A stretch of 64,000 nt of DNA. Origin: Amphiscolops sp. MND2022 (Eukaryota). The DNA lies in NCBI GenBank assembly GCA_964187785.1, contig OZ076409.1, positions 60,576,001 through 60,640,000 of the forward strand. Direction: 5' to 3'. A program made the position numbers and the translations under genes. Below, piece by piece: positions 1 through 51,592 of the stretch. Positions within the stretch are counted from its first letter, which is position 1. Each line of letters opens with the position of its first letter. The notes below the pieces were generated by a model. That model searched no databases and was not told the DNA's origin. It saw only the letters and a list, made by a program, of their open reading frames with translations.

Positions 1-1478
1 GTAATTGTTTCAGCCAGTTCACGCCTAATAGTGGAGTGATGTCGTTTCTTTTTGTAATTAAGATTGGTAACTTTGTTGTCTTCCCGTTATATTCGATATC
101 GGCCCATATTTTCCGGAGGAGTTTGATTTCATTTTTGTTTACGTCTTGATATCTTTCTTTCAGGGGTTTTATATCTCTTTGGTTGTAGAGTTCTGGGTTG
201 TTTGCATTATTGTAACTGGAGAACCGGTATCAATGGTGAAATTTTGATATTTGCCGTTAATTTTTAGTTTGATCCCGTAGTTGTCGTTTTCATCCGGTAG
301 TACTTTATTGATTTGCGTGATTTGTTGTATTTCTTCTGGTTCGCTTTCTTTTTCTTCGGTGTATGTTTCTTCCAGGTAGTTAATTTTTTGTTTTCTTGTG
401 TTCTTATTGGTTTTGCTACGGCAAACTCTTGCAAAGTGTCCCATTTTGTGGCAATTGTTGCATTCTGCCGTTTTCGCCGGGCATTTGTGCGATGGTGACC
501 AGTTTTGCTGTCCGCAGAAACCGCAATTATTGTTTTTTGCTGTTATTTCGGTATTTTTCCGATGGTTTCGTGGTTGTATCTTCTGTATGGGTTCTTCTTT
601 TATTTCTTTTTCTTTCGCCAGTGCTGGTGGTATTGTTGATTGCTTGTGTCTCTTTTCATAACTGTCTTAGGTTACCAGGTCCATGGTAGTTTTCAGATTC
701 AGGGTTTTTTCGCGGATGAGCTTTTCCCGTAGTTTGTTATCGGTGATGCTGGTGATAAATTTTAATATTAGTAGGTCTTCTTGTTTGATATCTTTGAATT
801 CGCAGTTTTTTCGAGGGATACTAATTTTCGCCAGTGTTCTTCCGGGGTTTCATTAACTTCTTGTTTTGCCCAGAAGAAATCTCCTCGGCTGTGGTAGGTG
901 TTTCGCTTCGGCATGTAGTAGTCCTTGAATAGTTGGATGAGTCTTTTTGTATTGATGGTGTCAGGGTCTGTGTTAAATTCTATTTTGGTGATCGTCTCTA
1001 TTGCCGATGGTCCTGCTCCCCAGATGAAATCTTGTCTTATTTCCGGTTCTTTTGCTGTCCATTCGTTACTTGTTGGCATTGTTTCCCCGGATAGAGCCGG
1101 TTTTATATCGATATCATGGATTTGTTTTATGTAGTGCCGTAGTCGTTCGGTCCATTCTTTGGGGGTTTATAGTTTTTTCCCATCAAGTCCGGTATCCTCG
1201 AGGTATGGTAGCAATATATTACTCTTGGTTGTCGTCATTGGTATTTGGTCGGTTAAAATTGAATTATTTACGGATAAAAGTAAATCTTGCTACTGCGCCA
1301 TGTTGTATTCTCGATCTAGTACGGTAAAAAGGCTCTTTATCTATGACAATAAATTCGTATCTTCTTCAGTAACTAATATATGATATCTATCTCAAGTACA
1401 ATGGTCAATGATCTATCGTACAACACAAAATGCAGTAAACTCAAATTGACAGTAATTAGAGTTCAATGTTTAACAACA
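1..1478 (-). mobile_element. Decayed Ty3/Gypsy LTR retrotransposon, 5' part (LTR, PBS, gag, protease); continues beyond the window start
   Basis: LTR 1301-1478 bounded by TGTTG...CAACA. The minus-strand PBS TGGCGCAGTAGCAAGATT abuts the LTR and resembles tRNA-Ser primers. gag starts at ATG 1238 and has an in-frame stop and frameshifts. CCHC knuckle CNNCHKMGHFARVC and aspartic protease motif FTIDTGSPVTI lie within 169-480. Confidence 0.85.
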
Positions 1479-4938: not shown

Positions 4939-6175
4939 GTTCTTCATAAGTTTACACTTTTGCAGAGTTCCTCATTTAATGTTGTCTCCTAAACAAGTTA
5001 ATCTGAATCATGATACGACTGTTAGAGCTTATTCTACTGATATGATACTCCTTAGGATTGCGAATTGATAAAGTTCTCCTGACGTAACACTTATTGCCTC
5101 TGCTGGAAATGCTGAAAAGCCATCTTTGCATATTTCAAATACAATCTCCCTTTCAAAAAGCCTTTCGACGTTTTTTATTCCAGTTTCAACGATCGTTGGT
5201 TAATGTACGATAGTATCGATAGATTTAAGAAAAATTCTAAAACGTTTTTGATTAGTAAATTTCACAAAAAAGTGCAAACATGCATTGAATTTCACGGTTC
5301 AGTGTTTAATAATTTGGTGGTGTATGTCTTTCACAAGGTAAGATAAGTGGTACAGTTACAAGAACGTCAGCCTAGAACCATTAAATCATCCCGAGTGTTT
5401 CTGTTATGGGGGCAAGTATTTAATGATTGCTTAATTTCGAGTGGACTCAATTGAACGCAGAACCTTTCAAAATTCAATTTTAACCTTGTCTCAAAGGTTT
5501 CAATATTGAATCTCTGATTTGAATGAAGATAGGAGCCAATTTTTTCCTGGATGAATGTTCTCGAATTTGAGTTGTAACTCAACTGGTGACGAGTAAGATC
5601 AAAATAGCCTTTTTGAACTTTCATTTTTATGGCAAAATTGTTGAAAATATCACGTTCTGATAAGTAAAGAGTAATATAAAGTAATTACTCTCAAACTAGC
5701 AGACAAATTCGAGCTTTATATCAACGCCGTGTTTTGAATAAAATATTAAATCTTGAACCATGTTCATCCTATTAAGGTCAACAGCGTGGATTTTTGTGTC
5801 CTCCTTTTGAACAACTTTATCAGAAGAATGGTTCTAAATTAAAACACTGTAATCTTCAGATCAATCGAACTCGGTAAATCAACTCACTCATGAGAGATAT
5901 ATGGGCTGATTTCAACCTCTCACGTGTGCTTTCGGTGGAATTTGAGGTTAAAATTAGTTGAGTTAATTCAGTGATATTCGAATTATGTGAAATCTTCTCA
6001 GCCAAATTTGCTCAGAAGATAAGCTTCTGCTTGTACACTTTTCTGATCACTCCGACCGATCTCACATTTTGACTCTTTGTTTGAATTCGTTCGTTTCTGG
6101 TCCACTTGTATTTAGGTGTGCTTGTTTTCACACGCTCTCAGCATCAACCCTCACTTCATTTCAACCGCCTAAACC

Positions 6176-6207
6176 TATATAAAGAACGTTCTAGAATTTT
6201 CTGGAAT
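6176..6207 (+). promoter_or_regulatory. TATA-like box plus five-unit heat-shock-element-like array just upstream of the SMT start codon
   Basis: TATATAAA at 6176-6183; aGAAc gTTCt aGAAt tTTCt gGAAt at 6183-6207 (five alternating nGAAn/nTTCn units); ATG at 6215. Confidence 0.5.
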
Positions 6208-6214
6208 TATAAAA

Positions 6215-9200
6215 ATGTCTAAACTCAGAGAATTCGGTACCAAAGATCTTCAAGGAGCTGTGGATAACTATGTCACCGAATACGGTAGGAGAAATTGAAT
6301 TCCAACCTTATGAAGTATAAAGCTGGATGTTTCCACGTAGATTGATTAAAGTTGCTTGAACAACCACAACGTTGAAAACTCAAGGGTACAGAGTTTTGTA
6401 GGATTCGAACGAAATGACAAAAAAACAACCAGATAGAGAAACTAAAAATTTTCTGGAGTCTTAGTTCGTTTGCTGACTGCTTATACATCGTATGAGAAAT
6501 AGAAAAAACGTTGCAGGAGCGTTCCAGCAAACTTTTAAAACTTTTAGATAGAGAGAAGCTGGAATTACGCAAAATTGGACACCATTTAATTTACTCAACA
6601 GTTCGGAATACAGAGACCATGACAAGTCTCGAATAGTTTAGAAGATATTGCGGTGTAAAATTTGAGCACCAGACTTTTGGATGACTTCGGAGATTCCGTC
6701 GTCCCTTTAGGGTTAAGATAAATAGGTAAGCTGAAATGCGACAAAGTTTAATATAACGTAATTATCAACGACAAAGTTTCCGACGGCGATATTTCTGGTA
6801 ATCGTTTTACACACGGTAGCTGACGTTTTGAATGCAGAAAGACTGTTGGAAAACGAGAACAAATTTTTGAGATAATGCTAAGCTTTCAGATTTTTTAAAC
6901 CACACTGGTAAAGTAAGAACGCACTTGAGATGTTTATACAAAATTGGAATATATGTTTATTATTTAAAAATCTGAAGAAAAGAGGAGTATTACCAATTAG
7001 CAACAATAAATCAGATTCTTCAGGATATTGCGCACTTGATGCCTTTATAATTGTTAAGAACAACGTGACGACATTTACCACATAGAATATAGACTTCTAG
7101 ATGTCATCAAATTGAAAGAGTAGTCCAACATCAATTTTTCCGTGACAAGCTGATGAGACTTCTAGGCTGTGTCCGTTGACAAGAAATGGTGGAATTATTT
7201 AAATTATGAAATTACTAACTACTAATGACAAATAATTAAATGAGTCATTGATGCCCTTTAAATTGATACAGGCCCTAACAAATTTTTGTTAGAAATTCGT
7301 ACTGGAAAATGGAAATCGATGTGGTTGAATGCAAAGAAATACATAATTTTACAGAATATCTTTGAAATTTTCCGAAAACTCTTTTTTGCATTTAATTATA
7401 TATGTCTCGAAAAAGATTAGCATGATCCAAAAACCGTGGCCAGATGTATTCATTCATCTGTTTATAGAACAAGGAGATTTGGTCGGTAACAAGGAGAAGA
7501 CCGAAGGGTTCGTGAACAAGTATTACGACATTGCGACATCCTTTTACGAGCATGGATGGGGACCCTGTTTCCACTTTGCCACCCAGACCAGGGACGAGAC
7601 ATTCAGGGAGGCTATTAGGAGACATGAGTACTACCTCGCCATGAAACTCTCCCTCAAGAAGGACATGAAGGTGCTGGACGTGGGGTGCGGAATTGGGGGA
7701 CCCGCAGTCAACATCGCCAGATTCAGGTATGCAATAAATAAGTTCAAAAAGTTCAAATGCCATAAAGTTAAAAGGCCAAAGGGTCAAAATTATCGGACAC
7801 AAAATGCACTGAAAACACCCGTGAATGTTTAGTTCAGTCAAATCATTATTCAACAAATTCAGTATGATTCCAAGACAACCGTATTGATTTTATTCACACT
7901 TTACAGGAAATACTTTATAGCGAGCAAAAACGATTATATAGCTCCTGTGAAAAGGTACGCTAATGCTGGAAATGAAATTGCTCCGTGTAACCAGATTTTC
8001 TCTAATTTTGTTTGGAAAATTGAAAATCCGATTTTTTTGGAAAACTTTTGGCCAAAGAAAATAGCAGAAACTCTTTAAATTAGAGAAAAAATGAGGTTTT
8101 TGGGTAAAATATTTTGGATTCACTGATCTTCAGCAATGGTTCCTTACTTCTAGTCAAAACTAGTTTCCTTCGGTGAAATGTAACAAAGTTTGGTTATCGT
8201 AACAAAGTAGACCGAATATGAAGAAAAATACCAAATGCAGTATTTACATCTTCACATCTCCATTTCAGCGAGGCACACGTGAACGGAATAAACATCAACA
8301 AATATCAAATTAAGCGGGGAAACGAAAATGCGGCTGAAAACGCCCTGACAGACAAGGTTAGTCCTTGGGGTAGCCCATCTTATGTTTTCAGCGAAAGATT
8401 ATCACATACTCCAGAACTTTTTGGGCTTATTCAGATTTGCAGGTCAAGTTGAGCTGAAAAATTATCAAAGAAGTCCTTCGAATACTTTGTAGATATTGAA
8501 TCAAAATAATGAATACTTGTCTCGAAAAAAAACGCAAGAAAGTGACTCACAAATTTTTGCATATTTAGTTGATGAAATTTCTAAAAGAATCAAATATTCA
8601 CGATTTTAACGATTAGTAACGGTTGGGCGCGCGGCATTGGACGGATTGTCCTGTAACCAAATTTCTGGGTACGATACTTGATTAAAAGCTGTGTCTACTG
8701 ATTTTACTTTTTGTAGCTCACTTTCACCGAGGGTAGTTTCCTGGAGATGCCTTTCTCGGAGGGGACTTTCAACGCCGCCTACTCCATCGAGGCCACCTGT
8801 CACTCCCCCGACCAACACAAGGTGTACTCAGAGGTGTTCAGGGTGCTCAAACCAGGCTGCCTCTTCGCCATGTATGAGTGGTGTCTCACAGGTGAGTACA
8901 AAAAATACTTTTTTTAAATTGAATTATATAATTACATTGTCAAGTTTATAGGTTAAGAAAATGAAATATTCCGCTTTTTGAATCCTTTGAATTAGAAGTT
9001 TGGGTCCTCTTTCAGCTACACATGTACAAAAAAACATAGAAAAAATAATCGGCATCGAGTAAAAGCCCCCCTCGTTTAGAAACCGCTTCTTGTGAAGGTA
9101 AAAAACAAAAACCGCGGAATTGCATCAGGGAAATGTTTAGCATTAATGACTCTTTGTGAAACTCCCAAAATTATGATAAAAGTGCTTGGCACCCTATGAA

Positions 9201-12200
9201 AACATGTAAACGTTATAAGCAGTTTCAACTAGGGCGCGGTTACTATTCGAATGAAAACGATAATCTTCTTTTAAACTCGCCAAACGCTTCCATTTTTGCG
9301 CCAGACAAGTTTGATTTCGAGAACCCGGAACACATGGAGATCAAGAGACTGATTGAGATCGGAGACGCTCTTCCGGACATCAGAACCGTGAAGAAAACTC
9401 TTGAGGTTGTGAAAGAGGTGGGGTTTGAGATCCTGGAGACTGAGGACAGGGGAGAGACCACGGCCATCAACGATGTACCCTGGTACAGAATCATAGACCA
9501 GGGATTCATCAACATGAAGAACTTCAAAGTAACATCCTTCTTAAAACTAACTTCTAGATAAGCGAGTCTTCTTTTCAGATGTCTTGAATCTAGATTTAAC
9601 AAAGACGTTTTGTTATCTTATGTTATCAACTAAAATCAGGATTTCCTGTTTTATACTTTTTAAATTTTTGTCGCATAAATATTGCATATGGGAAAACAAT
9701 TAATCTCTCAGTCGTCGTCTGTTTTTTTTTCACAAATTTTGCTCTAGCCCTATTTTGTACCTAAAAGGTACAGTGTTGAGACTGCAGGAACTTTTTACAT
9801 GCTGCAGGCCTGCATGCAGGGTAATTGTTTATAAAACCTAGAAAATTCAGGGTAATTCAGGTGGTAAATCTTGTAGAATAACACTGCATTTTCCACTACT
9901 GCAATTAAATTTGAAAATAGATACAACATCATCACCGACACGACCTTATTGTATTTACAGTTTGCTTTCTCAACTAATCATCTGATGTGATCACCGCGTC
10001 TCAAATAGGACGCTAAACATGACGGTATATTGCAGTTTATTAGGTGACTGAAGTAATTTTGCATTAAAATGGCTGTTAAACTGAGAGCAATTTATTTGCT
10101 TTTAAAATTAGAACTGCTTCTTCATGAAACCTGCAAAACTTCAAGGCGTAAAATTGCCGCCAAAACTTTGATGAATCTTTCAAGCAGCTTGATAAAAGTC
10201 GAATACAACAGGTAAATATTTTCTCATTAAAGTTTCCGTAAGAGTTTTAGATAATCATAATAAAAGTTGCTGGCAACATTAAAGTACATGCAAAAAGTTC
10301 AAGAAGTTTCAACAAGGGCTACGAGCCTACGAACATATGCTACGAACATATGCTACGAGCCTTAGAAGTCTGTGGAAGAAACTGCAGTTTCTTCCACAGA
10401 CTTCTAAGGCTCGTAGCATATATTATTTTGAGAACTTCTAAACTTTCAGAAAAATGCCGAATATTTAAAGTAGCCAAAAGAATTCTTTTTGAACAGGTTT
10501 CAAGTTTTCAACTGATTTTTGAACGCTCGTTGCTAAAATTGGGGCAAAAATAATTGCTTCTCCTAAAAAGATTTCACATTTGTTTTGGAAGATTTTAATT
10601 GCCACCTTGAAAAAGAAGCCTTTTAAAATTCATTTTTCTTTCATCTGAAACGAGCCAAAAATTTTCTAAGACGGAATTCAGGAACGACAAAACAGATGAT
10701 TTTTTTCCAATAGAGCCTGCAAAAGCAATGCTCTACTGAAACTCGTTGAAGTATTTAATAGATGTTTGCTTTACAAAAATTGATTTCAAAAAATCACTTT
10801 TAAAGCCCGCTATTATTCAGTTTTATTGGGATTGCTTCAAATCTTGCTTGAACCGGTTGTAACCATTTTTTATAGTATTTTCTTTGTTTCCAGACCTCTG
10901 AGCTAGGAGTGAAGTCGACCCATGTTTTGGTGAACGTCATGGAGACTTTCAGAATGGCCCCCAAAGGTACCGCCAAGTGCCACAAGGTCAGCTATGCAAT
11001 TGAAGGTCAATTTGAGGTCAAATCAAACGCATATATTTCCCTCAAATTTGAATGATTTTCAAATTCCATGTTTAAAAACGCTTGCCTACTCAGGCTATCA
11101 TCATCCATGACTCATCCATAATTCATGATTTCGGTATTTCGAGAATTATTCAAAGACAATTAAGTTGTGTTGTGTCTAGAAATAGGTGTTTACTTTCGAA
11201 GTCTTGATTTTTATCAAAAAAGTGTTTTTTTTTAATATTACAACAATCATTCAGACTTTTCTACTGATTAGTTCACTTTAATGTTGAACCGATGTGTTTT
11301 GGGTACATTTGATAAACTTCAAGAGTTTTGCAGTCAAACAACTTGAATTGTTCAGTTCAGATAAAAGAATTTTACGCCACACTTTCACAAAGTCTCCATT
11401 AGGCCATGAAGTGGTATCTATGAACACCTGTATTAGATGATTGCAAGATAAGGTCAGGTAATTAAAGCTAGGTTCAATATACCCAATCACTTCTGTTCAC
11501 CTGGTCTAGTCTAAGTGACGGCATTATACTTCCAAATACCTGATTTCTGACTGAGCATTTCAAAGTGGATATGAAGGATTTTGCTCAAACGTGCCAGTTT
11601 GTATGTCTTGAGCAATTCTTGCAAAATGTATGACCAGTTCAATGGTATTAAAACATTTTGAAACAGTATTTAGGTATATGCAATATATACTCTATATTAT
11701 AAACACGATTGCGGCACAACAGAATTTCAGAACCGCTCCTGGTTGAAAAAGCTTTTCTTGATGAATTTTCACACTTTTCCTTCAAATCCCTGTTCTCTAT
11801 TTTTTCTGAATAGTTAAAGTTATCTGGGGTGAAACTAGATAACAAAAAAGAGTATTAAAACCTGATTTTCATCCAATAAAGCTTTTAAGTGACACCCATA
11901 TTTTATATACCTTGTGGTATAATGGGAAGTTCATTTCTCAGTAGCTTTTTTGAAAGGTTAATTTGCCGTACTCTAATTTTATACTTCAAAGATAGAAGCT
12001 CTTACGCAGAATAGAATAAAATGAAAACTGATTGTAAATCATAACCTTTTATGGAAAAAGTAAATTTTGTGAAGGATTTGAAACTAATTGTCATGAGTTG
12101 ATTGGTTTTCCCATTAGCACTTATGTTGCTAGAATGATTAAGGGTGGAAAATGACCCAGGGCTTGGTGAGCATCTTGTTTCTCAGCTTACAATACCTGTT

Positions 12201-12372
12201 CAGTAAAATAGAGTTCAAAGACTTTTTCTGAGCGAGTTATCAAACCACCATCCACAAAAAATCTTGTTTGTTTTAGACTCTTCGCTACGCTCTCAAAGGC
12301 TTGAAAGCGGGTGGCCGAGAGGGTATTTTCACACCTGCGATGTTTGTGTTGGCAAGGAAGCCAGAAAACTGA
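6215..12372 (+). CDS. SMT: Sterol C-24 methyltransferase (SMT/ERG6 family), 7 coding exons, 334 aa
   Basis: Exons 6215-6284, 7468-7726, 8269-8356, 8717-8891, 9305-9528, 10894-10986 and 12277-12372 are all GT-AG, phase-compatible and total 1005 nt with no internal stop. Motifs: YYDIATSFYEHGWGPCFHFA, VLDVGCGIGGP (SAM binding), YSIEATCHSP, VLKPG, YEW, IEIGDALP, and C-terminal APKG...GGREGIFTPAMFVLARKP. Confidence 0.93.
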
Positions 12373-12852
12373 CGGAACCCACCAAGTAAATCCAAAACTC
12401 AACCAAACATTCCAAGGACTTTCAATTCAGGCTTCCATTTTGCCACTAAACTGTCCAACCATGTTACCCAAAAACTAAAATACTCAAAATAAATTTTGTA
12501 ATTTCTGACTGCGTTTTCACATTTTCTATCTGCAAGATGATCAAAACAAATGATGAGAAGATATTGAAGAGATAAGTCTAGCAAAAATGTCAGTTGAAAC
12601 ATGAGACAATTGAGAAAAAATATCGTTCAAAAACCAGAGTGAAGTGGCTATGATAAATGTTTCATTTTCCGTCCTCATATTTCATATGTAGCGAAGAAAA
12701 ATTACCATGCCTTTTACCCACAAGACTTGCTATGTTCCTATTTCACAAATTCCACAGACTTGAGCTACCAAAAATATATTGGATTTCAGAAGAGAATAAA
12801 GAAGGCTTATGATTGAAACGAAGATTGACCGCACTAAGCTATTTTGATGGTT

Positions 12853-13878
12853 CCCAGTGTTCGAAGCCATGGAACTTTTGCCATGATCATGGTAAAGCTT
12901 GGTAAATCATGGTTAACCATGGTACCCTTGTCAAGATCATGGCAAATCATGATACATGGAACGCTTGTAAAGATCATAGCAAGATCATGGCAAGATCATG
13001 GCAAGATCTTGACAAGATAACCATGGTAAGACATGTAAGCTGGTATTAATTGTGCATATTCTTTTCGCAAAAATTCCTTGTCGTCTGCAATTTCTGAATT
13101 AGCCATTGTAATAACTTCGGACATAAAATTTATTGATCGAAAATAGTTTTTTAATTGAAAAGTATCCAAAACTTGCTCAATAATTTGCTGCACCTATTGA
13201 TAGAATTTTTTTAGTTGAGAGCACGGCCTTGTTACTAATATCATAAATTATCATACAAAGCAAACTCCGAGTCAAGTTATTGCAACTTGCGGGTTTGCGA
13301 TATCGGTGTGAAAACCAACTTTTCTAGCTATGATTTGTTTACAATTATGCAAATCATGCTATTACCTTATCTATTGAGGTAACGGGTTCTAATTACTGAA
13401 GATCGAGAATGAAATGAAAACTTAAAATGGTCGGAGCAAAAACATTTTCCTTTAATGTCTTGAGTACCCAATACTTGTCTGTTTTTTGGTCCGAATAAAT
13501 TTTTAGATACTAGTTATAGTTTGAAAATAAGAGCTGTGAATTTTCCAAAAGTTTCGCTAAAACTTAAAATGGTCGGAGCAAAAACATTTTTCCTTTAATG
13601 TCTTGAGTACCCAATACTTGTCTGTTTTTTGGTCCGAATAAATTTTTAGATACTAGTTATAGTTTGAAAATAAGAGCTGTGAATTTTCCAAAAGTTTCGC
13701 TAATGGTACCATGGAACCCTTGCCAAGATCATGGTTAATCATGGTTAGCCTTCGCACGATTTTGCATGGCCATGGTAACTTTGCCAAGATCATGGCAAGA
13801 TCATGGCAATATCTTGGCAAGGCTAGCAAGGAACTTGCCATGGGTCTTGGCAAGGGTACCATGGCTTCAAACACTGGA
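12853..13878. mobile_element. MITE/foldback-like non-autonomous DNA element with CATG-rich subterminal repeats
   Basis: Imperfect TIRs CCCAGTGTTCGAAGCCATGG / CCATGGCTTCAAACACTGGA; arms made of GATCATGGCAA-type units; related CATG-rich tracts near 27385-27555 and 59810-59885. Confidence 0.65.
13418..13703 (+). repeat. Near-perfect tandem duplication, 142-bp period, 2 copies
   Basis: AAACTTAAAATGGTCGGAGC...AAGTTTCGCTAA occurs twice; the copies differ by one T in a homopolymer run. Confidence 0.9.
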
Positions 13879-14429: not shown

Positions 14430-17400
14430 AGGGAAGTTGCTTGCCGGGATACGTATCGTAATGATTGAATCTGAGATTGTCTATCCGGCAGTTGGGGTTG
14501 CTCTATTCCGGATTAGTTTTCGTCTGCACCCTCCAATTCAGGTGCTTGGTGTAGTGTTCTCCCTTTCAAGTGATAAGTCCAAGATATCTTCTTCCAGCAC
14601 TGGGGTGCTGCTTCTCTCCAGATGTTCTAAGTTCTGTTGTTCTTGGTGATGCTAAATCGTCCATCTGGGCCTCGTGGGGTTTCCCCCTTCTTGATAGAGG
14701 GTTCTGAAAATAAGGATTCATGGGTTTGCAAGCTCGTTTTCAAGGTATTATTTTATTTTCGTCTGCTAGTATTGTATATTTGGTTCCGGTTATTGCCGTT
14801 TGTGTCTTCTTTTCGTACAGTATTTCTAGTCGTATAATTTATCTCGTTTTTTTTTCGTTCCTTGAAATAGGTACGGAAAGTTAATACAAACATTTTATTT
14901 CCAGTTTTCTCGGTGTTTTTGTCACCAGTTGATCATACGGTCCATTTCCGTTTGAGAAAGAGTAGACTTGTAGTGCCTCCTGTTTGGCTGAACCAACATT
15001 TTTTTCTGAATTGTACTTGGGTGATTGTCTATTTCCGTCCTAAGATTTCTACCGTAGAGGCGTTCAAACGAAGTTTCTTTCATCTTTGAATTCGACCGTT
15101 CTTTTCATTGTATTCAACGGGTGCCTCAGTGCTTCGTTCATTTCTTTGCCATCCTCTAAACGTGTTCGCAGAAAAAATCTTCGGGGATTTTTATGCCTCA
15201 TTCCACCAGTCCGGTTGGTGTGTGTATATATGGTGTCCCGTATATCACTTTTATGTTTAAAAACTTACAAAAATGTCTAGAATCGTTCCGGTGAAGGCAG
15301 TGCCTTAATTTCGTTGTATACGTTTGTGGTAATCCGTATAAGGTAATGTATTGTTTCATAAATTTTTGCTGTTTTTCCGTTAGGTGTTTTGCATATACAC
15401 GCGGCCACCTCTCTGGCAAACCGGAGTTTTGAAATTGGTATAAAAATCGCCGGTGCTTCAATTTTATCCGGCGACATCCAATTGTATTTCTTGATTTGGT
15501 TTTTCTGCCGGGGGTAGGTAATTTTTTCCGTAATCGGTGTTTGGGCTTGAATGTTTCTACCTGCTATTTTTCACGGGATAAATTTGTCGCACTTTTATTG
15601 TAAATCCCTCTGTAGTTTTGACTAACAGAATAGTTCTGCTACCGTTGCCATTCTGTTTATGGCCGCGTGTACTTTGTGGAATAGCATACTGATTGTTCCT
15701 CGTATTTCTTGTGGTATGACAATCTTGCTGTCATGGAATACCACATTGAATCGCGTCGATAGGTTTTTAAAAAGAGATTCTACTCTCCCGGTATCTGGAC
15801 CAGTGCGTTTCTGTGCAGACAGACCAGCGTCTTCAGTAAATTTTCAACATCGGCTTTTTCGGTTGCGATCGTTTTTAGTTCGTTTGTGAACTTCTGTTCC
15901 GCCAGTATTCTCGTGTCTTTCAGGTTCCGAGTTTTGTCTGCTTGTATGTCGCTTACTTGCCCCATCTAGACTTATTGCACTCCTGATGTTCCCAAATATC
16001 AATTTGAATTGATTTCTGGGACGTCGATTGAGTCGTTTGTGCTGTTTGATAAGGGTTCGAGTTTTTCTAGTGTATTGCGTTTTTCTGATTGGTTTTCGAT
16101 CTGGAATATTTTGCACGGCCCCGTAGGTCTTTAATTTGTCGTTCGTGTGCTGTAGTTCTCATTTTTTGAATAACTCCTTTGTAAGTGTTCTTGTGACTCT
16201 TTGTTTTGTTTTTCCATTTTGTCCCAGGTCACTCTATTTCTCCTCTGGTGAAGTTCTATCTCTATCGATCCTGCATTTCTAGGCGATGTTGTTGGGTTTA
16301 GTCTAGGTAGACTCGCAATTTATTAGGTCGTCTTCTTCGTAGTCCTCGATTGGTTCAGGCTTTGATGTTGGATTACTGCTTAAATAGTTGGTCTGATCTA
16401 AATTTTCATATCAAAGTGTGCTAATTGATTTGATTCTTCCATCTTGATAATCGTGCACTGTACAGTTTATTTGGTCTAAATCTTTTCATCAGCTTATCTA
16501 GTGCTTGATGGCTTGTTAGCATTTTGATTGGATTTTCTGAAGTGTGTAAATGAAAATGTTCCAATCAACAGACTATTGCAAGTACTTGTAGTTCATATTA
16601 TGCGTATTCTTTTTCGGAATCGGATAGAAAACAGCTTGCGAGTGGTTTAAGATTCCCATCTTTTTGTCTTTGCCAGTGCCAGAGTGTTGCTGGCAGTCCA
16701 ATCGTACTGGCATCCGTTGTTATTATTTTATCCTTTTGTGCGTTATAATGTGCAAAGCATGGTAGTTTGATTATACACTTTTGAAAGCACTGAAAACTGT
16801 AGTGTTTTTTTCAGTCCAAATCTATTCGTTTTGTTTCTTTAGTAATTTCCTCTAGTATCTCAGCGTTTGTTGACAAATTCTCGATTTATTTTGACAATTA
16901 ATGTATCGCCCTAAAAAAAGGTATCAGTTCTTTCTCGTTTTTTTTTGTAATATTAGTTTTTGTCATCGCTTCAAGGTTATATGGTAATGGCCGTATCCCT
17001 TGTTGATTCCGTGTCCTATCCATTTGAGTTCTCCTTTTGAGAATTCAATTTTTTGGTTCTAAAATATATCCGGCTATTTCCATTTTCGTCCTTGTTTACT
17101 GTAATTCGGCTTCATGTTTTTCCATGTCTCCTTTCATTACAATTTTTATATCATTTAGCCAAGCCGGGTGCTTGTGTTCAAGTGAAGGTCTATCCATTTT
17201 TGGAAAAGTGTTGGAATGTCTGCCAGTCTGTAGAATTCCTTCAGAAAATGGCTACACTCCTGTTACGCCAAACATTCATTCCTTGTTTTTTGGTCCAAAT
17301 TACTTTGCTTGTAAGCTTAATTGAAGTCAGCTAGGATTTATCCATCCATTTTTTCCGATGTTTTTCGTACTTTTCGTACAATCAGTTCTTCCACATTTGA

Positions 17401-19100
17401 GCTTTTTAATGGTCACATCTTTAAAGTTTTTTGAAACCAGTGCAATTTCTGCCGATTTGTCTTTTTTCACCATTATCACCGCTGTGATTACGAAACAGTC
17501 TTCTGTAATATCAGTTGCCATTTCCAGGTAGCGGTGATCAATTAGTAGTTTGAGTTCATTTCCTATTAATCCTGGCGATGTTTCGCAATAGGTCTTCCCT
17601 TTTGTTAGATCATATGTGCCCCTTTTTTCAAGTTTACCTTCACTGACAGATTTTTTGTTGTTGTGGAAGTACTGTACAGCTTTATGTTAAGATTTTGCAT
17701 TGCGTCGTTGTTTGAGATTTGTTTTTTTAAGTCGTTGCATCAAGTCCGATTGCCTTAACGGGGATGTTTGCGCTTTTGTTGTCAGCAGCAACAGCTCAAT
17801 TGTCTCTTTGTTAGTTTCGACCATTGCTTTTGTTTGTCCTGCGAATTGAATCTTGATTCTTTACATCTTTGTAAGTAGTTTCGAGTGGTTTTCTTTTGGT
17901 TTGCTCGTTGAACAGACCATGAGGGAATAGTGTGTCCGGTGGGTGGCTCTCTATGATGAAATTTATTGGTTCATTCTCAACAATAGTGTTGCGTTATAGA
18001 ATCCCTTTTTTTGTTTTTCATTGTGGTTCCTCTGAATATTTTCGTAATCCCAGTTGACTCCTTCTGCTGATGATGTTTCTCTGTCGACGTCTTGGAATCC
18101 TTCCAGGGATCTGTATGTTTTCTCTTAATTTACCTTTCTTTCGCAATTTCTGCACTCTGCTGTTTTTGCCGGGCAAATTTGGTGTCTTGTCCAGTTCGGT
18201 GCGCCGCATTGTCCATATCAGTTGTCTCTCCGTTTGAATTTTTGAATAATTTGCTTGCTGTTTTCCGGTCTTCTCTTCGAGCTTTCTTGACTTGACTTTT
18301 CTGACCATTTTTTTAAAGGGTCTTTCTCGAACATGTTTTATTCTTTTTCGTTATTGGAATTGTTTGGGTCGTTTAACCGATCGTACGAACGTTCTTGTTT
18401 TAGGGTTGTTATGGTCTCGATTGTCATGTCGCTCTTGCGAAACTTTCTTACGTTCATAGTGCTAATAGTTCAGCTTGTGTGACATTGTTGAACTCGCAAT
18501 TTTTTCCCCTTGTGGTATACTCATCCATACGTCTTCTGCCGATTCGTGTTTTTCTCTTGTTGTTCCATTGAATTCAGCTCTGCTATGGAATGTGTTTCGT
18601 TGTGGTATGAAGTGTAACAAGAAAAATGTGTGTATTTGGTTTATGTCGATTCTGCTTGGATCATTGTCTCTAACGGATCTCTACACATCCGTTATTGCCG
18701 ACTTGCCTAACACCCAGATGAAAAGATCGTTTATCAGTTATTCCAGATCATCTCTATATGCCTTTAGTTTTTCGCGGTTTGTGGTCATTTCGTTTAGGTC
18801 AAAATTTCGTGTCTTTTTTATGTACTGTGTACATCACCGAAATTTTGCGTCTGGGATACAGCGTTTCTAGAACGTCGGTACCGTAATGTTTTGGTGGGTT
18901 TTCTCGTTCTTGGCATTTCCTCTTTCTACTGTGTTTTCTCCGCTTGAGGAACTCGTACTCTCTGATGACTCCGCCATGTTCTAACTAGACTTGAAACAAT
19001 AAAGAAGTTGATATACGCTGAATATTCTATTCTCAACAGTGTTATTTTTGGAATGGTAAGTGAATATGTCAGTGTTAGATTCATGTTACTATATTTCACA
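14430..19100 (-). mobile_element. Heavily decayed Ty3/Gypsy element (gag-pol remnants), related to the element at 1-1478; outer limits approximate
   Basis: Minus-strand remnants: integrase VIYGTPYIHTPTGLVE (~15200-15250), RT-like CFVITAVIMVKKDKSAEIAL (~17440-17505), and gag-like IPQRNTFHSRAEF and FIWVLG that match MPKRNTYHSRGDF and FIWGAG of the first element. PBS-like TGGCGGAG abuts an LTR-like segment starting at 18977. Many stops and frameshifts. Confidence 0.8.
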
Positions 19101-23949: not shown

Positions 23950-26929
23950 ATGGACAAGCTGTCAGAAGAAGAGATCAGTGAGTTGAGGGACGCCTTCACC
24001 CTGTTTGACACCAAGTTCGAGGGGGTCATTCCCGCCTCAGAGGTCAGTAAACTGAACTGACCTATAGCGCCGTTGAATTATAAGTGTTATAATCAGAGTT
24101 GGAACCGGGCCCGAATATTCCGTCCCTTCTCGGCCTGGCGCGGTCAATGGTTTTGAAAATCCTCCTCTAACAGACAGAGAATGAATTTAATTCGGACCCT
24201 TTTATTCTACACCTATCGAAACACAGGTCCGGTTCTAACTCTAGTTATAATAGTATATTATTATATGCTCTCGCTTCCAGTTCCATAATATGTAAAAAAA
24301 TCTTATGGAAATTAAAAATCTGAGTATATGGAATATTTTTGAGACATCTGATCCAAAATGTGGAACTGAATTCATGAGTTTTCCAGAATCCTTATAGCCA
24401 TGCATCCTTGAATCATGTGTACTTTTTACAACCATTGAATAACTCTTGCCATGACTGAAAATGATCATGGATAGAAATCCGTCTCTAAGTGGTGTACCTG
24501 GGTTATCTAGAAAACATACAGTGTTTGTTTCTCTTGGTATAAGACATACAAACCCCGGCCGTTTTCCTCATTGTAACATACTTCCTCAATTTTTAATGAG
24601 AACTCCCATGACATCTTCCATGTTTCGCTCATTGGACAACACAAGCACAGCCCTCCTCTCAGCAGGATACAGCGTGAGCTAGTGTAAACAAGACGGGAAC
24701 GTCTAAAGTCGGCGCTATATCTAAGGCTCAAAAAAGCGCTAAGTTTTTAAACTTGTAAAAGGGGGACCCTTTGGGCTTTTTGAAACTTCAGTTTGCTGCA
24801 AATTATCAAAAAACTTGAAGGGGGGACCCTTTGGCGACAAAAAAAATTTGAAAATTTTTTGAAAAAAAATTCAAAAAAAACGAAAAATGAGAATTTTGAA
24901 AGTCTCACAGTGCCGAAAAACTAGAAAGGGGGCCATTTGGGCTTTTTGAAACTTCAGTTTGCTGCAAAATATCAAAAAACTTGAAGGGGGGACCGTTTGG
25001 CGACAAAAGAAAATTCGAAAAAAAGCCGCACAGTGCCGAAAAAAATTCAAAGGGGGGACCCTGTAGTCCCGTCCGGTTTTGTATCTTACCTTAAAAATTG
25101 AGTACACGAAAGGGGGGGCCCTTTGCAGTAACTCAGATGTGATTCCGCTTGCCGGTTCAGTACTTTTAGTAGTTCTGTAAAAAGTGTCCACTACGCATAC
25201 ATTCTGTGGTTTGACGAAAAAAAGAAAAAAACTACCCACTGTAAGAGTCGGGCACATTTTCTACTAAAATGCGCCGACTAATAAAAAACACTGCACATTA
25301 CAAAGAACAAGTTTACATTCGACTATCAAAAACCCAGTCATAACTGATATTCTGCTGCCTTGTTACATCTGCTGTGGAACTGAAGTCAATAACATTTCGA
25401 GAAAATGATTGAAAGAAGTCATGTTTTTTAATTGAAAAAAAATAGTTTCTTGAAAATTCGTTTATCGAGGAATGTAAGGCACAATTGAACGGAAGAATTC
25501 CTCAATGGTCATACGTAATTTAGCATATTGGGCGAAGAATAGAGCAAAAGACCTTGAGCTATTCTAATATCATACCCACAGAATATCGTTCAAAACCTTC
25601 ACAAAACGTTGAAAGATTGATGAAAATTTTTTGCTACTTTCATTTTTGGGACTTTTTGTGAAAATTCAGTCACAAAAATCCTTAGAGTATACTACTATAC
25701 TAAATATTTTCGTGGCTGAATGTATGTTATGAACTATGGCCCTCAAGTATAAAAATATAGTATGAATGTATTAATTAACAGGGCTGTTAAGTTGATTTTT
25801 GGCTAATCAATAAATTAAGTATGGGCGGAAAATGATTAACCATGCTTCATAAAAAAGATCAAAGATTCGGTTTCGAGACATTTCATCCTATGCAATTTGA
25901 ACCGTTGCCGTTTCAACCGCTCACAATTTCAACCTATTATATTTTCAACTTTCTACAATTTCGACCTATACTAATTTTAGCTAACTGATCCTAATTTCTA
26001 AAACCAATTATGCTAACTTTTACGCCAGTTTTGATGAGATTTCGGCTTCTTCATGAATAGATACCATTAACTAAGCCTATTTGATTCATTACTAACAATG
26101 ATAATGAAATAATCCTCAACCGAATTAGGATTAATTATCTCAAATTAGTTTAGGTTGAACATGCAATAGGTTGAAATTGTCGTCTTAGTGCAATTTCACT
26201 CACACACACCAATCAATCGTCTTAGTGGGTGACCCAGTGATTGCTATTTGTGGTGTAGGTGGGCAACCTGGCGCGTGCCATGGGTCTGAACCCGAAGGTG
26301 GCTGACGTGAACAGTATGACCGGAGCAGATAAGGAGCCCAACAAGAAGGTGAAATTCGAGGAATTTGTGCCCATATACCTGGACCTGCAGAAGATCAAGG
26401 ACGAGTACAAGATTCCAGACTACATCGAGTGCTTCAAGGTCGGTACCTGGTAAATTGCATCCATCAGAAGGGAAAGAAAGGAACGACATTTTAAAGGAGA
26501 GTGTATTTGAAGCCTCTATTTCAAAGTTATTTTAAAGTGTATTTCAAAGTTATTACCCCCAGCTTCTTTTTATCTGCAAAATATTAATGATAAACTTTAG
26601 CTGCATAGCTCCTCACCTTTGCCGAAATCATTTCCTACTTTACCGGGTATTTAAAAATCCTTTAATTTCAGCCAATTAAAAGCTTCGGGAAGAGTGATTT
26701 TCTTGTTTCATACAATATTGTGACTAACTTTCGTTCACAGAGTTTGTGTGACCACGAGCACAGTGGCCTGGCCGAGGCGGCTGTTTTTGCCAAAATGGTA
26801 CAGAAGCTGGGAGAGAAGCTAGAACAAGAATACGTGGACCAGGCCTTGAAGGGATTCGAACCCGACCAGGATGGAAAAATCAAGTACATCGATGTGCTCA
26901 AGAAGGTAATGGAGGAAGCTAAGAACTAG
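23950..26929 (+). CDS. Myosin essential (alkali) light chain-like EF-hand protein, 3 coding exons, 153 aa
   Basis: Exons 23950-24042, 26259-26438 and 26741-26929 with phase-0 GT-AG introns and branch point GACTAAC near 26722. Sequence features: ELRDAFTLFD, VGNLARAMGLNP, KFEEFVPI, LGEKL, DGKIKY. Probable 5' UTR intron 23361-23912. Confidence 0.88.
24686..25282 (-). repeat. Helentron-like interspersed repeat copy inside myosin light chain intron 1
   Basis: Subterminal inverted repeat AGTCGGCGC/GCGCCGACT, terminal hairpin GACG-TTCC-CGTC on the minus strand, internal GGGGGACC tandem units. Confidence 0.75.
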
Positions 26930-27929: not shown

Positions 27930-28997
27930 TCAGTAAGGCTGATTGATTTCATATTCATCTGGTGCTTCTCGCTCGCAAATGACATGACCTTGAATGTCAC
28001 AGGGGAAATCATCTAACCCCTCGACCTTTTGACCTTCGTCTTCTGCGTCTCGCAGCCATTTCCTGGACACACAAGATTCCATTGTGTCGTTTTTGGAGTT
28101 ATCCGGCTGATTTTTTCGCCAAACTGTTTCCGCCATTAGAAGTGCACAAAATGGTTGACATTTTAATGTATCGAAAATTGCTGGTTAATAAATTGAGGAG
28201 TTCAATCTTTCAAGCCCATCGCCATTTTTTGTGACATTGATGATCAAGTGACTTAGATTTCGATTAAACGTTTAGCGAAAAATGTTTCTCGATCATTTCA
28301 TTTTCCTATTAAAAGCGGCACTGGGATCTTTCGTTTTGTTTCTTGAGAAACGTTTTCAACATTTTTAGCGAAACTACAAGAGTCAATTTTGCGCACCGCT
28401 ATCGGGCATAGCCAAAGACTGGTCATAAACATCTCTGAAGTAGGACTTTTCCAGGACAATCTCGTCCAGATACTTCCGGTCGAAAGCGGCCAGTGAAAAG
28501 TGACGTCGTTTGTAGCCAGACCACATAACCTCTTGTTGTGACCACGTTTGACCCAGAATGAATGACCTAAAAATTTAAGCACGCGTCAGGCTTATTCAGG
28601 CAAAAACTGCGTTTGTCATTGAAAATCAGCAGTTCGACAACTTTGTGTTTTGGAAAAAGCTATTTAGTCGTTTCAAAATTAATGCTGCCACGATTCATAA
28701 CATTCCAGTAACGAATCATAACAGCATAAAATCGGACAATTTGGAAGTTTTTCGAACTCGACATGGTTCGGAATTGTTATACCGTACTATGTTTACGTCA
28801 TCAGAACCCAACGAATATTTCAGAGTCGGTGTGGTTTTTGGGTCATCGTGTGTGATACCTGAGGAGTTCGACCTCTTGTGTGTTCCGAGGCTGAACTAGT
28901 CGGGCGTAGATTCCGTTGCAGTAGTCAAAGGCTTCGTACCAGTTCATAGCCTCTCCACTGAACAACACACATGCCTTCTCACACGAACCAGTGTAAC
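27930..28997 (-). CDS. C-type lectin domain protein (3 exons found; 5' exon(s) not identified)
   Basis: Phase-compatible exons 28997-28859, 28566-28397 and 28123-27930 give CVLFSGEAMNWYEAFDYC...ARLVQP...MWSGY...VWRKNQPDN...ESCV...LDDFPC...HVICE, the CTLD cysteine pattern with a QPD motif. Confidence 0.82.
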
Positions 28998-31740
28998 CTG
29001 GAATTAAAAAAAAAACAAAACTGAATCTGCAAAACTTTTCTTCCGTCTGTCAAAAATGATAACAAGACGCCCGCTGACCAGCAGGATATTTTCCGTCCCA
29101 ACTATTACAGCAATGACATAGTTTTGAGGCTCAAGAGTAGCCATTGCACTATGAAAACGCATAGAGGTTTGATGAAAAAAGGTTTGACACTTTTTGAATA
29201 ATGTCATACCATTTTAGAAGGAAATACTTCAAGAAGACACCGCACACCTATTTGGTTTTTCGTCAGATTGTGTGTATTCCAAAACCTAACCAATTGACTT
29301 TTATTTAAATTTGCACGATGTCGCCCAAAACGTCAAAACTTCTACAATTTTGCTTTTTCGACAACTTTGCGGTCATTTGAGGAACTTTTACAAGAAACTT
29401 TAGATGTCTTTTTAAAAACGCCTATTGGATAACAGGTCCAGTCGTTCTTGAATAACAAAATTGCTCGAAACGTTTACAAAAAAGTATATCAAAAATTTCA
29501 GAAACAAAAAATTGATTTTCACTAAATTTCAAGTCGTTCTGACGAACTTTTTGCATACACAATTGTAGATTTCTTTTTTAGAAATCCTGCATGCCTACTC
29601 CGAAAGGTTAGACATCTGCACTATTAGGATGTTTTGGTAACTTTCAATAGAAATTCACTAATTTGTCGAACAACTGCCAAAACTTGTTTTTTTTTTCGAC
29701 TATTTTGGGGTCATTTTGAGGCTCTTTTCTAACGTGAAACTGCAATTCACCTTCAAAAAACCTACTAAATAACGCATTTGTTCGCTGTTGAGGGTTTTCT
29801 GTCTTCCAACGATGGAAACGCCTCAAAAAATTCAGAACTTTGCATAAGAAACGTTGAATTTCAACTTTTTATTTCCGACTCATCAGGGTCACATTTGAGG
29901 TTTTGAAGTACTTTTGAAGCAAAATACTGCAACTTTCTTCAAAATAGCGTACTGCATAGCTGGTTTTTTCGTTTTCGAGAGTTTTGAATATTCTTAGTCA
30001 CAAAAACTTTCAAAATTTGAACAGAAACTGCAGCAAAAACTTTAAATTTGAAGTATTTCTGATGTAAAGCACTGTAATTTTCTCATCAAGAAGGGAAACT
30101 ACATACCTGATTCTATCGCCTTTGACTGTTTTGAACCATCTAACTCAACAAATTCTTGAAAATTGTACCCAAATAACAAGAAGAGCCTACATAAACTGGA
30201 AATTTTTGGAGTTTTCGACAATTTTTGAGTCAAATTACAGCACGTTTGTTACCAAAAACTGGCACTTATCACCTCAAAAAGCCCAACAGACACGGCCTTC
30301 AGTTGTTGTTGAATAGTTTCAGAATTCTAAGCCATGAAAAAGTTGAAACGTTTACAAAAATTTAGTTGTAAAGAACAAAATTGTAAAAACGTAAGATTTT
30401 TTGATTATTTTGGGTTCCATTTGACAATTCTTTTTTTACAAAACTGCATTTATCTCCGCAAACAACCCTATTGGACAACGAAATCATTCGTGGTTGAAGG
30501 TATTTAACGTTCTGATCCATGAAATCTTTAGAAATTTGACAAAAGTTGCATGAAAACGTGAAAAATTGGTACTTTTCGAAGTTATTGTCATTTTTGGTCG
30601 CAAATTGTGTTTTTTTTTCATTAAAAACCTTCGTTTATTTCCTAAAAAAGCCTCCCGTACAATCAATTTGTTGAAAGCCACGAAAATTATCAATAAATTG
30701 ACAAAAATTGCACAAAATTGGAAAGTTTTGCAGTTTTTACTATTTTTGTGGGGTCATTTTTGGGTCACTCTGGGGTTTTTGGGGCCAATCAAAAAAGTCC
30801 AAAAATCTCGACAAATACATACCGCATGATACTAATTTTTCATCAGTTGAGTTCTATGGGTGAAACCCTTTAGGTAGGATATAATTTAATTCTTGGCAAA
30901 TTTTTGAAAAAGAACCCGTTTGATTTAAATATTTTCCTTTTCCATATGAAATATGGACGGAAAATACCAATGACCAACGTGACGCCTAATAGTGTTACAA
31001 TGTTTATCCAATGTTTATCAATAATCAACTACCCAATGTTTAAGTGATAGAACTAAGAACTAAGAAAGAACTAGAATGATTAAATTTCTCAACAAGCTCT
31101 ATCTGGAACCTCAAAACAACCGCAATGACTATGCAAAAGTTTTCAGTACGCCCGTATTTAGTACGAAGTTGCCAAGAAAATGCCAGTAGGCTTCAGATGC
31201 GTGCAGCGGAAAATTTGCGAGAAATGGTCAACCAGAAACGTTTTCATCTTGTATGTACCTTCAGTAAAGCCACTTATGGCCGAAATGGGTCAAACACCGA
31301 GCAAAAAAGCCCGACTGTTTCAAACTGCTCAACAGATTTTAAACTGACAGATTAGCTAATGCATCAGTTCGAAATAGTAAAAATTGTTGATTTTTTTCAC
31401 GGGAATGGAGTATTTGAAGACTTATTCTTTTTGATTTTTTAACCTCAACAAAGAAGTTATATTTTGGTTTTTGATGTTCAAAGTTAAAAATACGAACTCC
31501 GTGGAAACAAAAACGTTAAAAGTCAACGTTGTAAGAAAGAGTTCTCTTCTTGTGGTTTTTATTGTTCTATACTTTCAATTACAAAGGGACCAATGATATG
31601 CCACATGGCAAAGCGGTTAACGCGAATTTCTCACCGTGGCGAGTGAGTTTTTCTTCGCGGACGTGGGTTTTATTCTCGCTCTGAACCATGTTTTTGTTGC
31701 TCGGAAAGGTACAGTGGAGACCAAAAAGCCCCGTTCATGT

Positions 31741-32270: not shown

Positions 32271-33411
32271 GACATTATCGGACCTTTTTAAATGAAGGGT
32301 TCCCTTCGATTTTTAGCTGTAACACAGCGTGCTGCGAGCATACAGGATCGCAAAGAAGTTTTGAAACAACGCAATTGTTGAGCGTTTTTAGTAGGCGTTT
32401 TCGAAGAAAAAGCACGACTTTTACAGTGGCTAGTTTTTTTTTCGTCCGTTCAACGCAATCGGTCCAGCTTTTGTACATTATGCGTTTTTACCATAAGTAC
32501 TTAGTACTTCATTTTGAATGCATTCAAAGCCTCTAACATGAAATAAAAAACCATTGCAAAGCAGAAAGGTGCCCTTTCCACTTTTTTAACACTATAAGAC
32601 TTCCCCCTTTTTTCGGCTTTGTGAGACGAGACGTTTTTCGAACGTTTTTCGATGTCTCCCAATCGTCCCCCTTGAATTTTGATAATTTGCAACAGAATGG
32701 TTGTTAAAAACCTCAAAGGGTCTCCCTTCCATCAAATATTCCCAATCTGAGGCTAGATCAAAAGTTCAAATGGTTTTGGGCCTTGGCTTGGAGCATACAA
32801 ATATCGTAGCACCTTCTGCAAACCATTGAACGCTTCTGTTCGAAGCCAAGTGCGACATGCCGTCGCGCCTATGTTTCTTTTATTCATCTTGTGTTAATTT
32901 TACTCGGTGGTTTTTACTTTCGAGTGTATTTTATCTTTTCCAAAAGTTGCATCTGTGAACAACCTTGTTCATTTTATGTATCTTTTTTAGTCGGCGCCTT
33001 TTCTTTTTTTTTCTCCAGACCACAGACCTCACACTGAAAAGATAACTTTTTACAGAAACTACTAGATTACTAGACCAGCCAAGTCCGACCAGCGGAAACG
33101 CATCCAAGTTAGTACAAAGGGTCCCCTTTCATGTTTTCTTTTCCTAACGTAACATACAAAACCGAACGAGACTGAAGGATCCCGCTTTCAATTTTTTCCG
33201 CCACTGCGAGAATTTTTGTCGGGAATTTTTTAACGTCTCCTAAGTGTCCCCTTGAATTTTTTGATATTGTGCAACAGAATGAATGTTAAAAAATACCAAA
33301 GGGTCCCCGTTTTACATTTTTTTGGCAAAATTCTCATTTTTTAAACAATTATTAGGTTTTCTCAATATACATCCACCGATAACTTTTTTTCAAATCTCCA
33401 AAATAGCCGGA

Positions 33412-33679
33412 TGTACTGATCTACATTAATAACCAATAGTATTTAGATGTTTATAGAATGTTCTAGAATGTACATTTATTTGTTATTGAATGATTGTAAA
33501 TCTCTACTCCTTCAGAGAGAGAAAACTAATAATCAGTATTCAGTTGACTTCCTTTTTGTTCTACTCCTAACACCTCGGAATAGTTGTAATAAAGTAAGCT
33601 AGCTAGCCTGTCTCTCAGCCGCTTTTAGTAGTTGCGTATAAGACCATAAAAACAATAACCAACCATTAAAAGCAGCACA
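33412..33679 (+). repeat. 5' LTR (268 bp)
   Basis: TGTACTGATC...AAGCAGCACA; no difference from 51593-51860 seen by eye; AATAAA at 33588-33593. Confidence 0.95.
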
Positions 33680-33682
33680 ATT

Positions 33683-33697
33683 TGGTGCGACTTGTAA
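33683..33697 (+). promoter_or_regulatory. Putative primer-binding site (primer tRNA not assigned)
   Basis: TGGTGCGACTTGT begins 3 nt after the LTR end. Confidence 0.7.
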
Positions 33698-33920
33698 AAT
33701 TTTTCTCTTGTCCTTTCTCCTGGATGATTTCTCTTCTCTCAACAATCATACAAATACCACTCTCCATATTTGAAATTCTCTGGAATTGCAGTAAAATCTT
33801 TCTAGAATTTCTTGAAAGTTTGGTCTGTGACTTTCTAAATTTCATTACCAAATACATCATCGTTCGAAACACAATTTCTCCACTACAACAATCAATTTTA
33901 ATATAACAAAATTTCTTCAA

Positions 33921-34252
33921 TACCGGTTTATCACGTTTTCTAACACGTTGACACGGTTCTTTTTCCTGTTCTTCTAGCCATACCGGTTTATCACGTTTTC
34001 TAATACGTTGAAACGGTTTCATTTCAGACTGATTTATCCATTGTGACACAGTTCTGTTTTTCTTCTTTTTCCAGACTGATTTATCCAAAGTGACACAGTT
34101 CTGTTCTCCATACTGATTTATCACAGCTAATCCGGAAGCTTGTTGAAACAGTTCCTTGATGTATGTCTGGTTTATCAAGGTTTTCTAACACCTTTGACAC
34201 AGCAACATTTGTCTGGTTTATCATGGTTTTCTAACACCTTTGACACAGCAAC
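33921..34252 (+). repeat. Degenerate tandem repeats in the retroelement 5' leader
   Basis: Paired units CCGGTTTATCACGTTTTCTAA.ACGTTGA, CTGATTTATCCA..GTGACACAGTTCTGTT and TGTCTGGTTTATCA.GGTTTTCTAACACCTTTGACACAGCAAC. Confidence 0.8.
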
Positions 34253-35495: not shown

Positions 35496-35609
35496 ATGTG
35501 GGAAAAGGTTACCACAGTAGTACTCATTACAACATACACGTTTTGTGTCTTATTTATAGTTTGTGTTCTTCTTGAAAAAATACTTACAGTGATAAGAGAT
35601 AAACTTTAA
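35496..35609 (+). CDS. Small putative single-pass membrane protein (37 aa) immediately upstream of gag
   Basis: MWEKVTTVVLITTYTFCVLFIVCVLLEKILTVIRDKL*; 22-residue uncharged stretch; stop codon ends 2 nt before the gag ATG. Confidence 0.45.
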   Translation: MWEKVTTVVLITTYTFCVLFIVCVLLEKILTVIRDKL

Positions 35610-35611
35610 AA

Positions 35612-43644: not shown

Positions 43645-43828
43645 AATACGGAATACAGAAAGAAATACACACAAAGAAAGTTTGAAAGAAAGAAAAAGTT
43701 TGAAGCTTAGAACGAAAATAAATGAAATTTATTTTACGAATGAGAATAAAAGAAAGAAATCCTAATTGATATAAAACTATAACTATTTTACAAGCTGAAA
43801 CTAACTATCGTAACACAACGATTTCAAA

Positions 43829-45271: not shown

Positions 45272-45286
45272 ATCAATATTTTAACC

Positions 45287-51577: not shown

Positions 51578-51592
51578 AAAAACCGGGATGGA
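51578..51592 (+). promoter_or_regulatory. Polypurine tract-like sequence
   Basis: AAAAACCGGGATGGA immediately before the 3' LTR TG. Confidence 0.6.

Follow-up and report, generated by a model that had tools for sequence, protein, structure and literature searches.

Whether an animal can alkylate sterols at C-24 with an enzyme encoded in its own genome is the question raised by a 64,000-nt stretch of genomic DNA (contig OZ076409.1; the whole stretch is called the window below), in which a seven-exon gene of the sterol C-24 methyltransferase (C24-SMT) family lies at 6215-12372. We lean clearly towards reading it as an intact and conserved gene of the C24-SMT family in an animal, likely an acoel, whose product methylates the side chain of sterols that are themselves likely acquired. 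The exons total 1005 nt and join into a single open frame of 334 amino acids (aa) plus stop, the introns are GT-AG in all six cases with lengths of 360-1365 nt, and the protein carries the motifs YEHGWG, LDVGCGIGGP, and IEATCHSP; the original prediction, of a complete 334-aa SMT with six introns, proved exact in its coordinates and motifs. It had also described the exons as GC-richer, which holds for values of 0.41-0.57 against 0.32-0.35 in the introns, exon 1 (0.41) being just mildly richer, in a window whose GC of 35.6% (0.356) is even along the whole stretch. The parts of the gene are given here with their identities to P0003, a 334-aa Logan protein retrieved by a search with exon 2:

6176..6183, + strand: TATA-like TATATAAA, a putative promoter element shortly upstream of the SMT ATG
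6215..6284, + strand: SMT exon 1, with the start codon, aa 1-23, phase 1; 22/23 aa identical to P0003
7468..7726, + strand: SMT exon 2, with sterol-binding Region I (YEHGWGPCFHF) and Region II (LDVGCGIGGP), which binds S-adenosylmethionine (SAM); 83/85 identical
8269..8356, + strand: SMT exon 3, aa 111-139; 29/29 identical
8717..8891, + strand: SMT exon 4, with Regions III (YSIEATCHSP) and IV (YEW) and the rare residues S146 and N158; 53/58 identical
9305..9528, + strand: SMT exon 5, with the IEIGDALP motif (D218, yeast position 249) and W257; 69/74 identical
10894..10986, + strand: SMT exon 6, first half of Sterol_MT_C (PF08498), E 5e-07; 31/31 identical
12277..12372, + strand: SMT exon 7, second half of Sterol_MT_C and the stop, E 6.9e-10; 30/31 identical
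12488..12493, + strand: AATAAA, a putative poly(A) signal 116 nt past the SMT stop, read, like the TATA-like element, from sequence alone

The six introns interrupt codon 24 (phase 1), codon 110 (phase 2) and codon 198 (phase 1) and, in phase 0, follow codons 139, 272, and 303. Intron 5 also contains a near-perfect inverted repeat of 80 nt (10345-10424, 97.5%); the patch around it is GC-richer and contains short tandem copies.

The exon junctions are borne out by two intron-free relatives. P0003, encoded on a 1215-base contig whose length suggests that it is transcript-derived, is identical to the window protein at 317/331 whole-codon positions (96%), with zero shift at every junction. The other, L001, is a contig of 1198 bases encoding P0121 (92% protein identity to the window SMT), on which all seven window exons align back to back and without gaps at a DNA identity of 75-86%. 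Comparison of the window with L001 over 331 codons gave proportions of nonsynonymous and synonymous differences (pN and pS) of 0.054 and 0.716, and a ratio of the corresponding rates (dN/dS) of 0.024, which is imprecise as dS is near saturation. Several related species conserve the gene, which is intact; it is taken as an old resident because synonymous sites are near saturation between the sisters. A pseudogene is rejected. The protein P0122, called on another genomic contig (46.8 kb), is similar to the window SMT over exon 2 alone, with the same exon-2 borders, so that introns 1 and 2 likely stand at the same places in a further genome. The C-terminus of P0121 is 19 aa longer, with short EKPE/DKPE repeats (L001 1081-1146) that are absent from the window protein and from P0003.

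Membership of the SMT family is supported at the level of domains, matches, and residues. In a scan of P0003 and P0121, PF08498 scored 76 bits (cut-off 21.7) and PF08241 71 bits, both above curated cut-offs, and window exons 4, 6, and 7 each match Pfam SMT domains separately. The best matches of P0003 among 2307, at an identity of 42-52%, came from plants, algae, and environmental eukaryotes and are annotated as C-24 SMTs, and the predicted structure has a class I methyltransferase fold (predicted local distance difference test, pLDDT, 85.7). Nothing above cut-off was returned among the 25 best matches listed in the NCBIfam scan, no close SMT was among the matches to solved structures, and an Atlas search with the SMT gave generic SMT clusters only. 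The study of Brown and Welander describes 25 residues common to functional SMTs, which act as a predictor and not as a strict definition. The window SMT keeps 24 of these, including all five that are essential in yeast, the exception being yeast D189, which is N158 here; yeast numbers were assigned from motif offsets and the consensus of each column, in an alignment without the yeast sequence. Kept are G53, W54, G55, F58, H59, and F60 of Region I (with H52 at the yeast Y83 position), D94, G96, G98, G101, and P102 of Region II (DxGxGxxGP), E164 of Region III (yeast E195), and G186 of Region IV (yeast G217). The gene most likely encodes a working C-24 methyltransferase. Propylating (C30) SMTs are marked by Gly at yeast position 249 together with Phe at 81 or 83; the window protein has D218, Y50, and H52 at these places, and a propylating SMT is rejected on the D at 249 and the Y at 81.

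The same signature bears on whether the protein could be a sterol C-4 methyltransferase like nematode STRM-1, with 3-oxo sterols as its substrates, an idea to which we give next to no credence. Both the length (334 aa) and the fold family agree with the C. elegans 4-SMT, but that enzyme, as described in PMC6997595, is 21% identical to Erg6, whereas in the window protein YExGWGxxFHF is retained and the identity to many C-24 SMTs is 46-52%. The STRM-1 reading fails because the nematode enzyme lacks the Region I aromatics that the window protein has, and the choice made in the original prediction, of a C24-type over a nematode C-4 type enzyme, is upheld.

Several observations nevertheless weigh against a working C24-SMT belonging to this genome. 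Residues were counted over 155 aligned SMTs, the two sister proteins P0003 and P0121 included. S146 replaces D (137/155) or N (14/155), at a position that we take to lie by the SAM adenine, as in class I methyltransferases in general. H52 removes one Region I aromatic, and N158 stands where 151/155 have Asp, at one of the 25 diagnostic sites; in the Brown and Welander study, 7 of 11 inactive SMTs deviated at at least one of these. The intron-free sequences that bear out the junctions came from relatives and not from the genome of the window itself; a look-up of sequencing runs for 6000-12500 listed none, which is not taken as evidence. Furthermore, no dispersed repeat common to the rest of the window was found in the SMT introns, so that the link of the SMT to the host genes rests on assembly continuity and composition. 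The variants YEHGWG and IEATCHSP, earlier singled out as notable, are uncommon but not unique, with H at position 52 in 7/155 and S at position 169 in 14/155; N158 and S146 are rarer.

These residues could also mean that the protein, although of the SMT family, has shifted its specificity off the C-24 methylation of ordinary sterols or has low activity. N158, S146, H52, and V104 are all off consensus and fixed in the window, P0003, and P0121, and their stem branch is long (0.7-1.05 changes per site); the retention of 24/25 diagnostic residues with all five yeast-essential ones, and of a whole C-terminal sterol domain, makes such a shift improbable.

In a working C24-SMT, family chemistry suggests that SAM would bind Region II (D94, G98, P102) and that its methyl would attack the delta-24(25) double bond of a sterol such as desmosterol, while the Region I aromatics (Y50, W54, F58, F60) would hold the carbocation and H59 (yeast H90) would remove a proton to give 24-methylenecholesterol (C28). 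By analogy, a second methylation round to a C29 sterol has about even odds, C29 products having been described for the Olavius enzyme and for 6/8 tested sponge enzymes; a third round is unlikely, given D in place of G at position 249. The intact and strongly conserved gene indicates that the worm likely modifies sterols itself. As acoel physiology suggests, the substrate would be acquired from prey or algae and not built de novo: S. roscoffensis and Waminoa are described as sterol auxotrophs supplied by algae, and the likeliest role is therefore the re-tailoring of acquired sterols for membranes. The earlier suggestion that the animal may alkylate its own sterols is doubtful in the de novo sense, because acoels are described as auxotrophs.

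A de novo pathway ending in C24-SMT, as in Olavius, in which the worm would build desmosterol and methylate it once or twice, is rather unlikely. It has a precedent in gutless annelids, strong purifying selection implies a steady supply of substrate, and auxotrophy was measured in other acoels only; on the other side stand the descriptions of S. roscoffensis and Waminoa as unable to make sterols, together with the result of a scan, not an exhaustive one, of open reading frames (ORFs) of the window, which revealed no further sterol gene. A bolder version of the preferred reading, which we judge possible though not probable, is that a sterol-auxotrophic acoel lineage gained the C24-SMT laterally from a myxobacterium or protist and added six introns, that the host finishes some of the C28/C29 'symbiont' sterols by ethylation or other re-tailoring, and that S146, N158, and H52 reflect a shifted substrate range.

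Two neighbouring genes bear on the identity of the host:

23950..26929, + strand: myosin essential light chain gene of three exons, the main marker of an animal host
about 27930..29001, - strand: C-type lectin exons, with a weak Lectin_C match (E 0.0057, below cut-off)

The light chain gene lies 11.6 kb downstream of the SMT. A search with it gave two relatives among five candidates, with no named acoel sequence, including P0215 (76% over exon 2), whose best solved-structure matches are animal myosin essential light chains. At third codon positions, GC (GC3) reaches 0.66 for the SMT, against 0.73 for the light chain, 0.60 for one lectin exon, and 0.22 for the retroelement of the window. Both neighbours named in the original prediction are present, the lectin with its weak Pfam match, and its view of an apparently animal genome agrees with the animal-type neighbours, the introns, and the composition. 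The host is almost certainly an animal and quite probably an acoel. The GC of 35.6% against 36.7% in S. roscoffensis and the richness in long terminal repeat (LTR) elements fit an acoel, neither being diagnostic, and the S. roscoffensis spliced-leader motif had no matches in the window and L001, which says little. With regard to the vetting of animal SMT genes in PMC10692144, which asks for introns and a location in the animal genome and for relatives that form a clade, six introns beside animal-type genes were found here, and P0003 and P0121 form a 100% clade.

It is very improbable that the stretch comes from a symbiont or prey organism, whether alga or protist, and entered an animal scaffold through an assembly error. 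Many false animal SMTs have been traced to contamination, and the best matches of P0003 are plant, algal, and protist-like. However, the introns are long and AT-rich, GC is even across the window, GC3 of the SMT is like that of its animal neighbours, a second genomic contig (that of P0122) has the same exon-2 borders, the Tetraselmis SMT reaches 47% only, and none of the four free trees puts the worm proteins inside the green-plant clade.

The origin of the gene was approached with trees of SMT homologues, which contained no STRM-1/C4-SMT or other outgroup family. After proteins outside 290-480 aa or aligned over <250 aa were dropped, 281 of 361 rows were kept; clustering at 72% gave 150 rows, after which 22 land-plant or partial rows were removed and the bacterial ones clustered to 26/80. 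The final set had 54 hand-picked rows, and the mixture-model tree was a quick version. Among 20 representatives looked up, two were named animal SMTs, from Oscarella and Rotaria; none could be identified from annelids, demosponges, or corals. Within the SMT homologues, P0003 pairs with P0121 at 100% support, on a long stem (0.7-1.05 changes per site) without a stable sister across the four free trees: the sister was environmental and bacterial-like proteins in the first tree (150 rows), the EukProt protein P0216 in the FastTree and mixture-model trees, and a myxococcal pair including Archangium L004 under LG+F+G4. All four put the pair outside the green-plant SMT1 clade, and in none was it monophyletic with the other animal SMTs, of which two named sequences were included.

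Constrained approximately unbiased (AU) tests, from rough searches, rejected none of nine origins (p 0.25-0.55); first fast constrained searches were set aside, since constrained trees outscored the free one. With a fixed backbone, 37/101 placements survived, including sponge-side, green-algal, and myxobacterial ones, with p-AU of 0.81 for the best-scoring (myxococcal) placement, 0.54 for P0216, 0.44 for the base of the greens, 0.22 for the base of Oscarella, Rotaria, and P0300, and 0.12 each for Tetraselmis and Oscarella, while Rotaria (0.003), Raphidocelis (0.017), and P0026 (0.011) were rejected. Constraining animal monophyly gave p-AU of 0.43 with the sponge and 0.30 with sponge and rotifer (fixed backbone, 0.12 and 0.22). 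Also rejected is a recent acquisition from inside the crown green algae, Tetraselmis excepted. Vertical and lateral origins stand about even.

Animal C24-SMTs have been published from sponges, annelids, rotifers, and stony corals (10.1101/2022.04.22.489198 and PMC10692144), so that the original prediction was right about annelids and too narrow in its exceptions, which extend to rotifers and stony corals. No report of an acoel SMT was found in the literature searched, which did not extend to the data archive of PMC10692144, the supplements on bioRxiv, or the Olavius study as published in Science, where an acoel sequence could be present. The words acoel and Xenacoelomorpha are absent from the main texts of the two studies, and acoel names are absent from two of the five PMC10692144 supplements. 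The worm SMT most likely adds an animal lineage missing from the published list. It is disputed whether the earliest animals already had an SMT that many of their descendants lost, or whether transfer brought the gene into animals repeatedly, a question that decides the reading of C28/C29 steranes in Neoproterozoic rocks. For a deep branch of the bilaterians, a genome-anchored, intron-bearing copy from Xenacoelomorpha would supply a fresh test case, and one that withstands the screen for contamination by which the mollusc claims were eliminated. If the preferred reading is true, acoels can alkylate algal sterols and do not just take them up passively, as has been supposed; this has a bearing on the C29 sterol enrichment, so far unexplained, in the Waminoa gut region. 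Since SMT chemistry is already known, the surprise is moderate. Background was also drawn from PMC8007520, PMC4183113, PMC12138185, PMC9911081, 10.64898/2025.12.19.695621, and 10.64898/2026.03.06.710013.

The remainder of the window is rich in mobile and repeated sequence. A Ty3/Gypsy-type LTR element of 18.4 kb occupies 33409-51860 (+), and its two 271-nt LTRs are 100% identical, which indicates a very recent insertion. Its domain matches comprise Gag, reverse transcriptase, RNase H, and integrase, with pol and envelope-like parts spread over several frames; the ORF at 45652-47163 matches PF24664 (Monjiviricetes fusion glycoprotein, E 4e-14), an unusual envelope type there. No Pfam match was obtained for its ORFs at 43814-45271, 47027-47866, 48262-49557, and 49857-50555 (+), nor a usable Atlas match for the 431-aa one among them, and a strong C-over-G and A-over-T skew runs along its whole length (33000-52000). 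Decayed retroelement remnants lie on both sides of the SMT, upstream at about 1-1330 (-), with gag-like CCHC and protease-like pieces, and downstream at about 14900-18900 (-), with pol-like pieces. Two tandem copies of a 145-nt unit (99% identity) stand at 13417-13703, with CATG-rich repeats next to them (about 12870-13020 and 13700-13870), and a degenerate GATC/GAAGATCTT-rich satellite of about 1.4 kb lies at 56400-57860. GC-rich, exon-like patches at 53850-54790 and 58860-59170 are probably parts of one gene; 53850-54116 reads on the + strand, exon-like readings also occur near 54550-54789 and 58860-59050, and there was no Pfam match in the frames tried.

Among the known systems closest to the worm gene are the annelid C24-SMT genes of Olavius algarvensis, O. 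clavatus, and Capitella teleta, likewise intron-containing bilaterian genes with the four SMT regions (10.1101/2022.04.22.489198 and PMC10692144). The Olavius enzyme, as described there, is the model for both the substrates (desmosterol, zymosterol, and 24-methylenecholesterol) and the products, although its gene has four exons encoding 356 aa in animals with de novo sterols, whereas the window gene, whose lineage is described as auxotrophic, has seven exons and codes for 334 aa. The SMTs of the sponge Oscarella lobularis (XP_065843096.1, P0269) and the rotifer Rotaria sordida (CAF1095261.1, P0278) have the same domains at 39% identity each, and the former has some of the less common residues of the worm protein (KYQ, YSIEAxCHS, GDAL, VME). 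Plant and green-algal SMT1 (cycloartenol C-24 methyltransferase) is among the highest named identities to P0003, mostly 44-50%, with 47% for Tetraselmis (P0149). Of the bacterial SMTs (PMC10070321), the nearest is that of the uncultured Archangium L004 (49% over 330 aa), which, unlike the worm gene, is intronless and 71% GC; this closest bacterial match lies at 1483-2478 of a contig from a metagenome-assembled genome, flanked by pseudouridine-synthase-like and hydrolase-like ORFs, and nothing within 1.5 kb of it was recognised as a sterol gene. Nematode STRM-1, of the same superfamily and equal length, methylates ring A of 3-oxo sterols (PMC6997595), whereas the worm protein has the C-24 signature.

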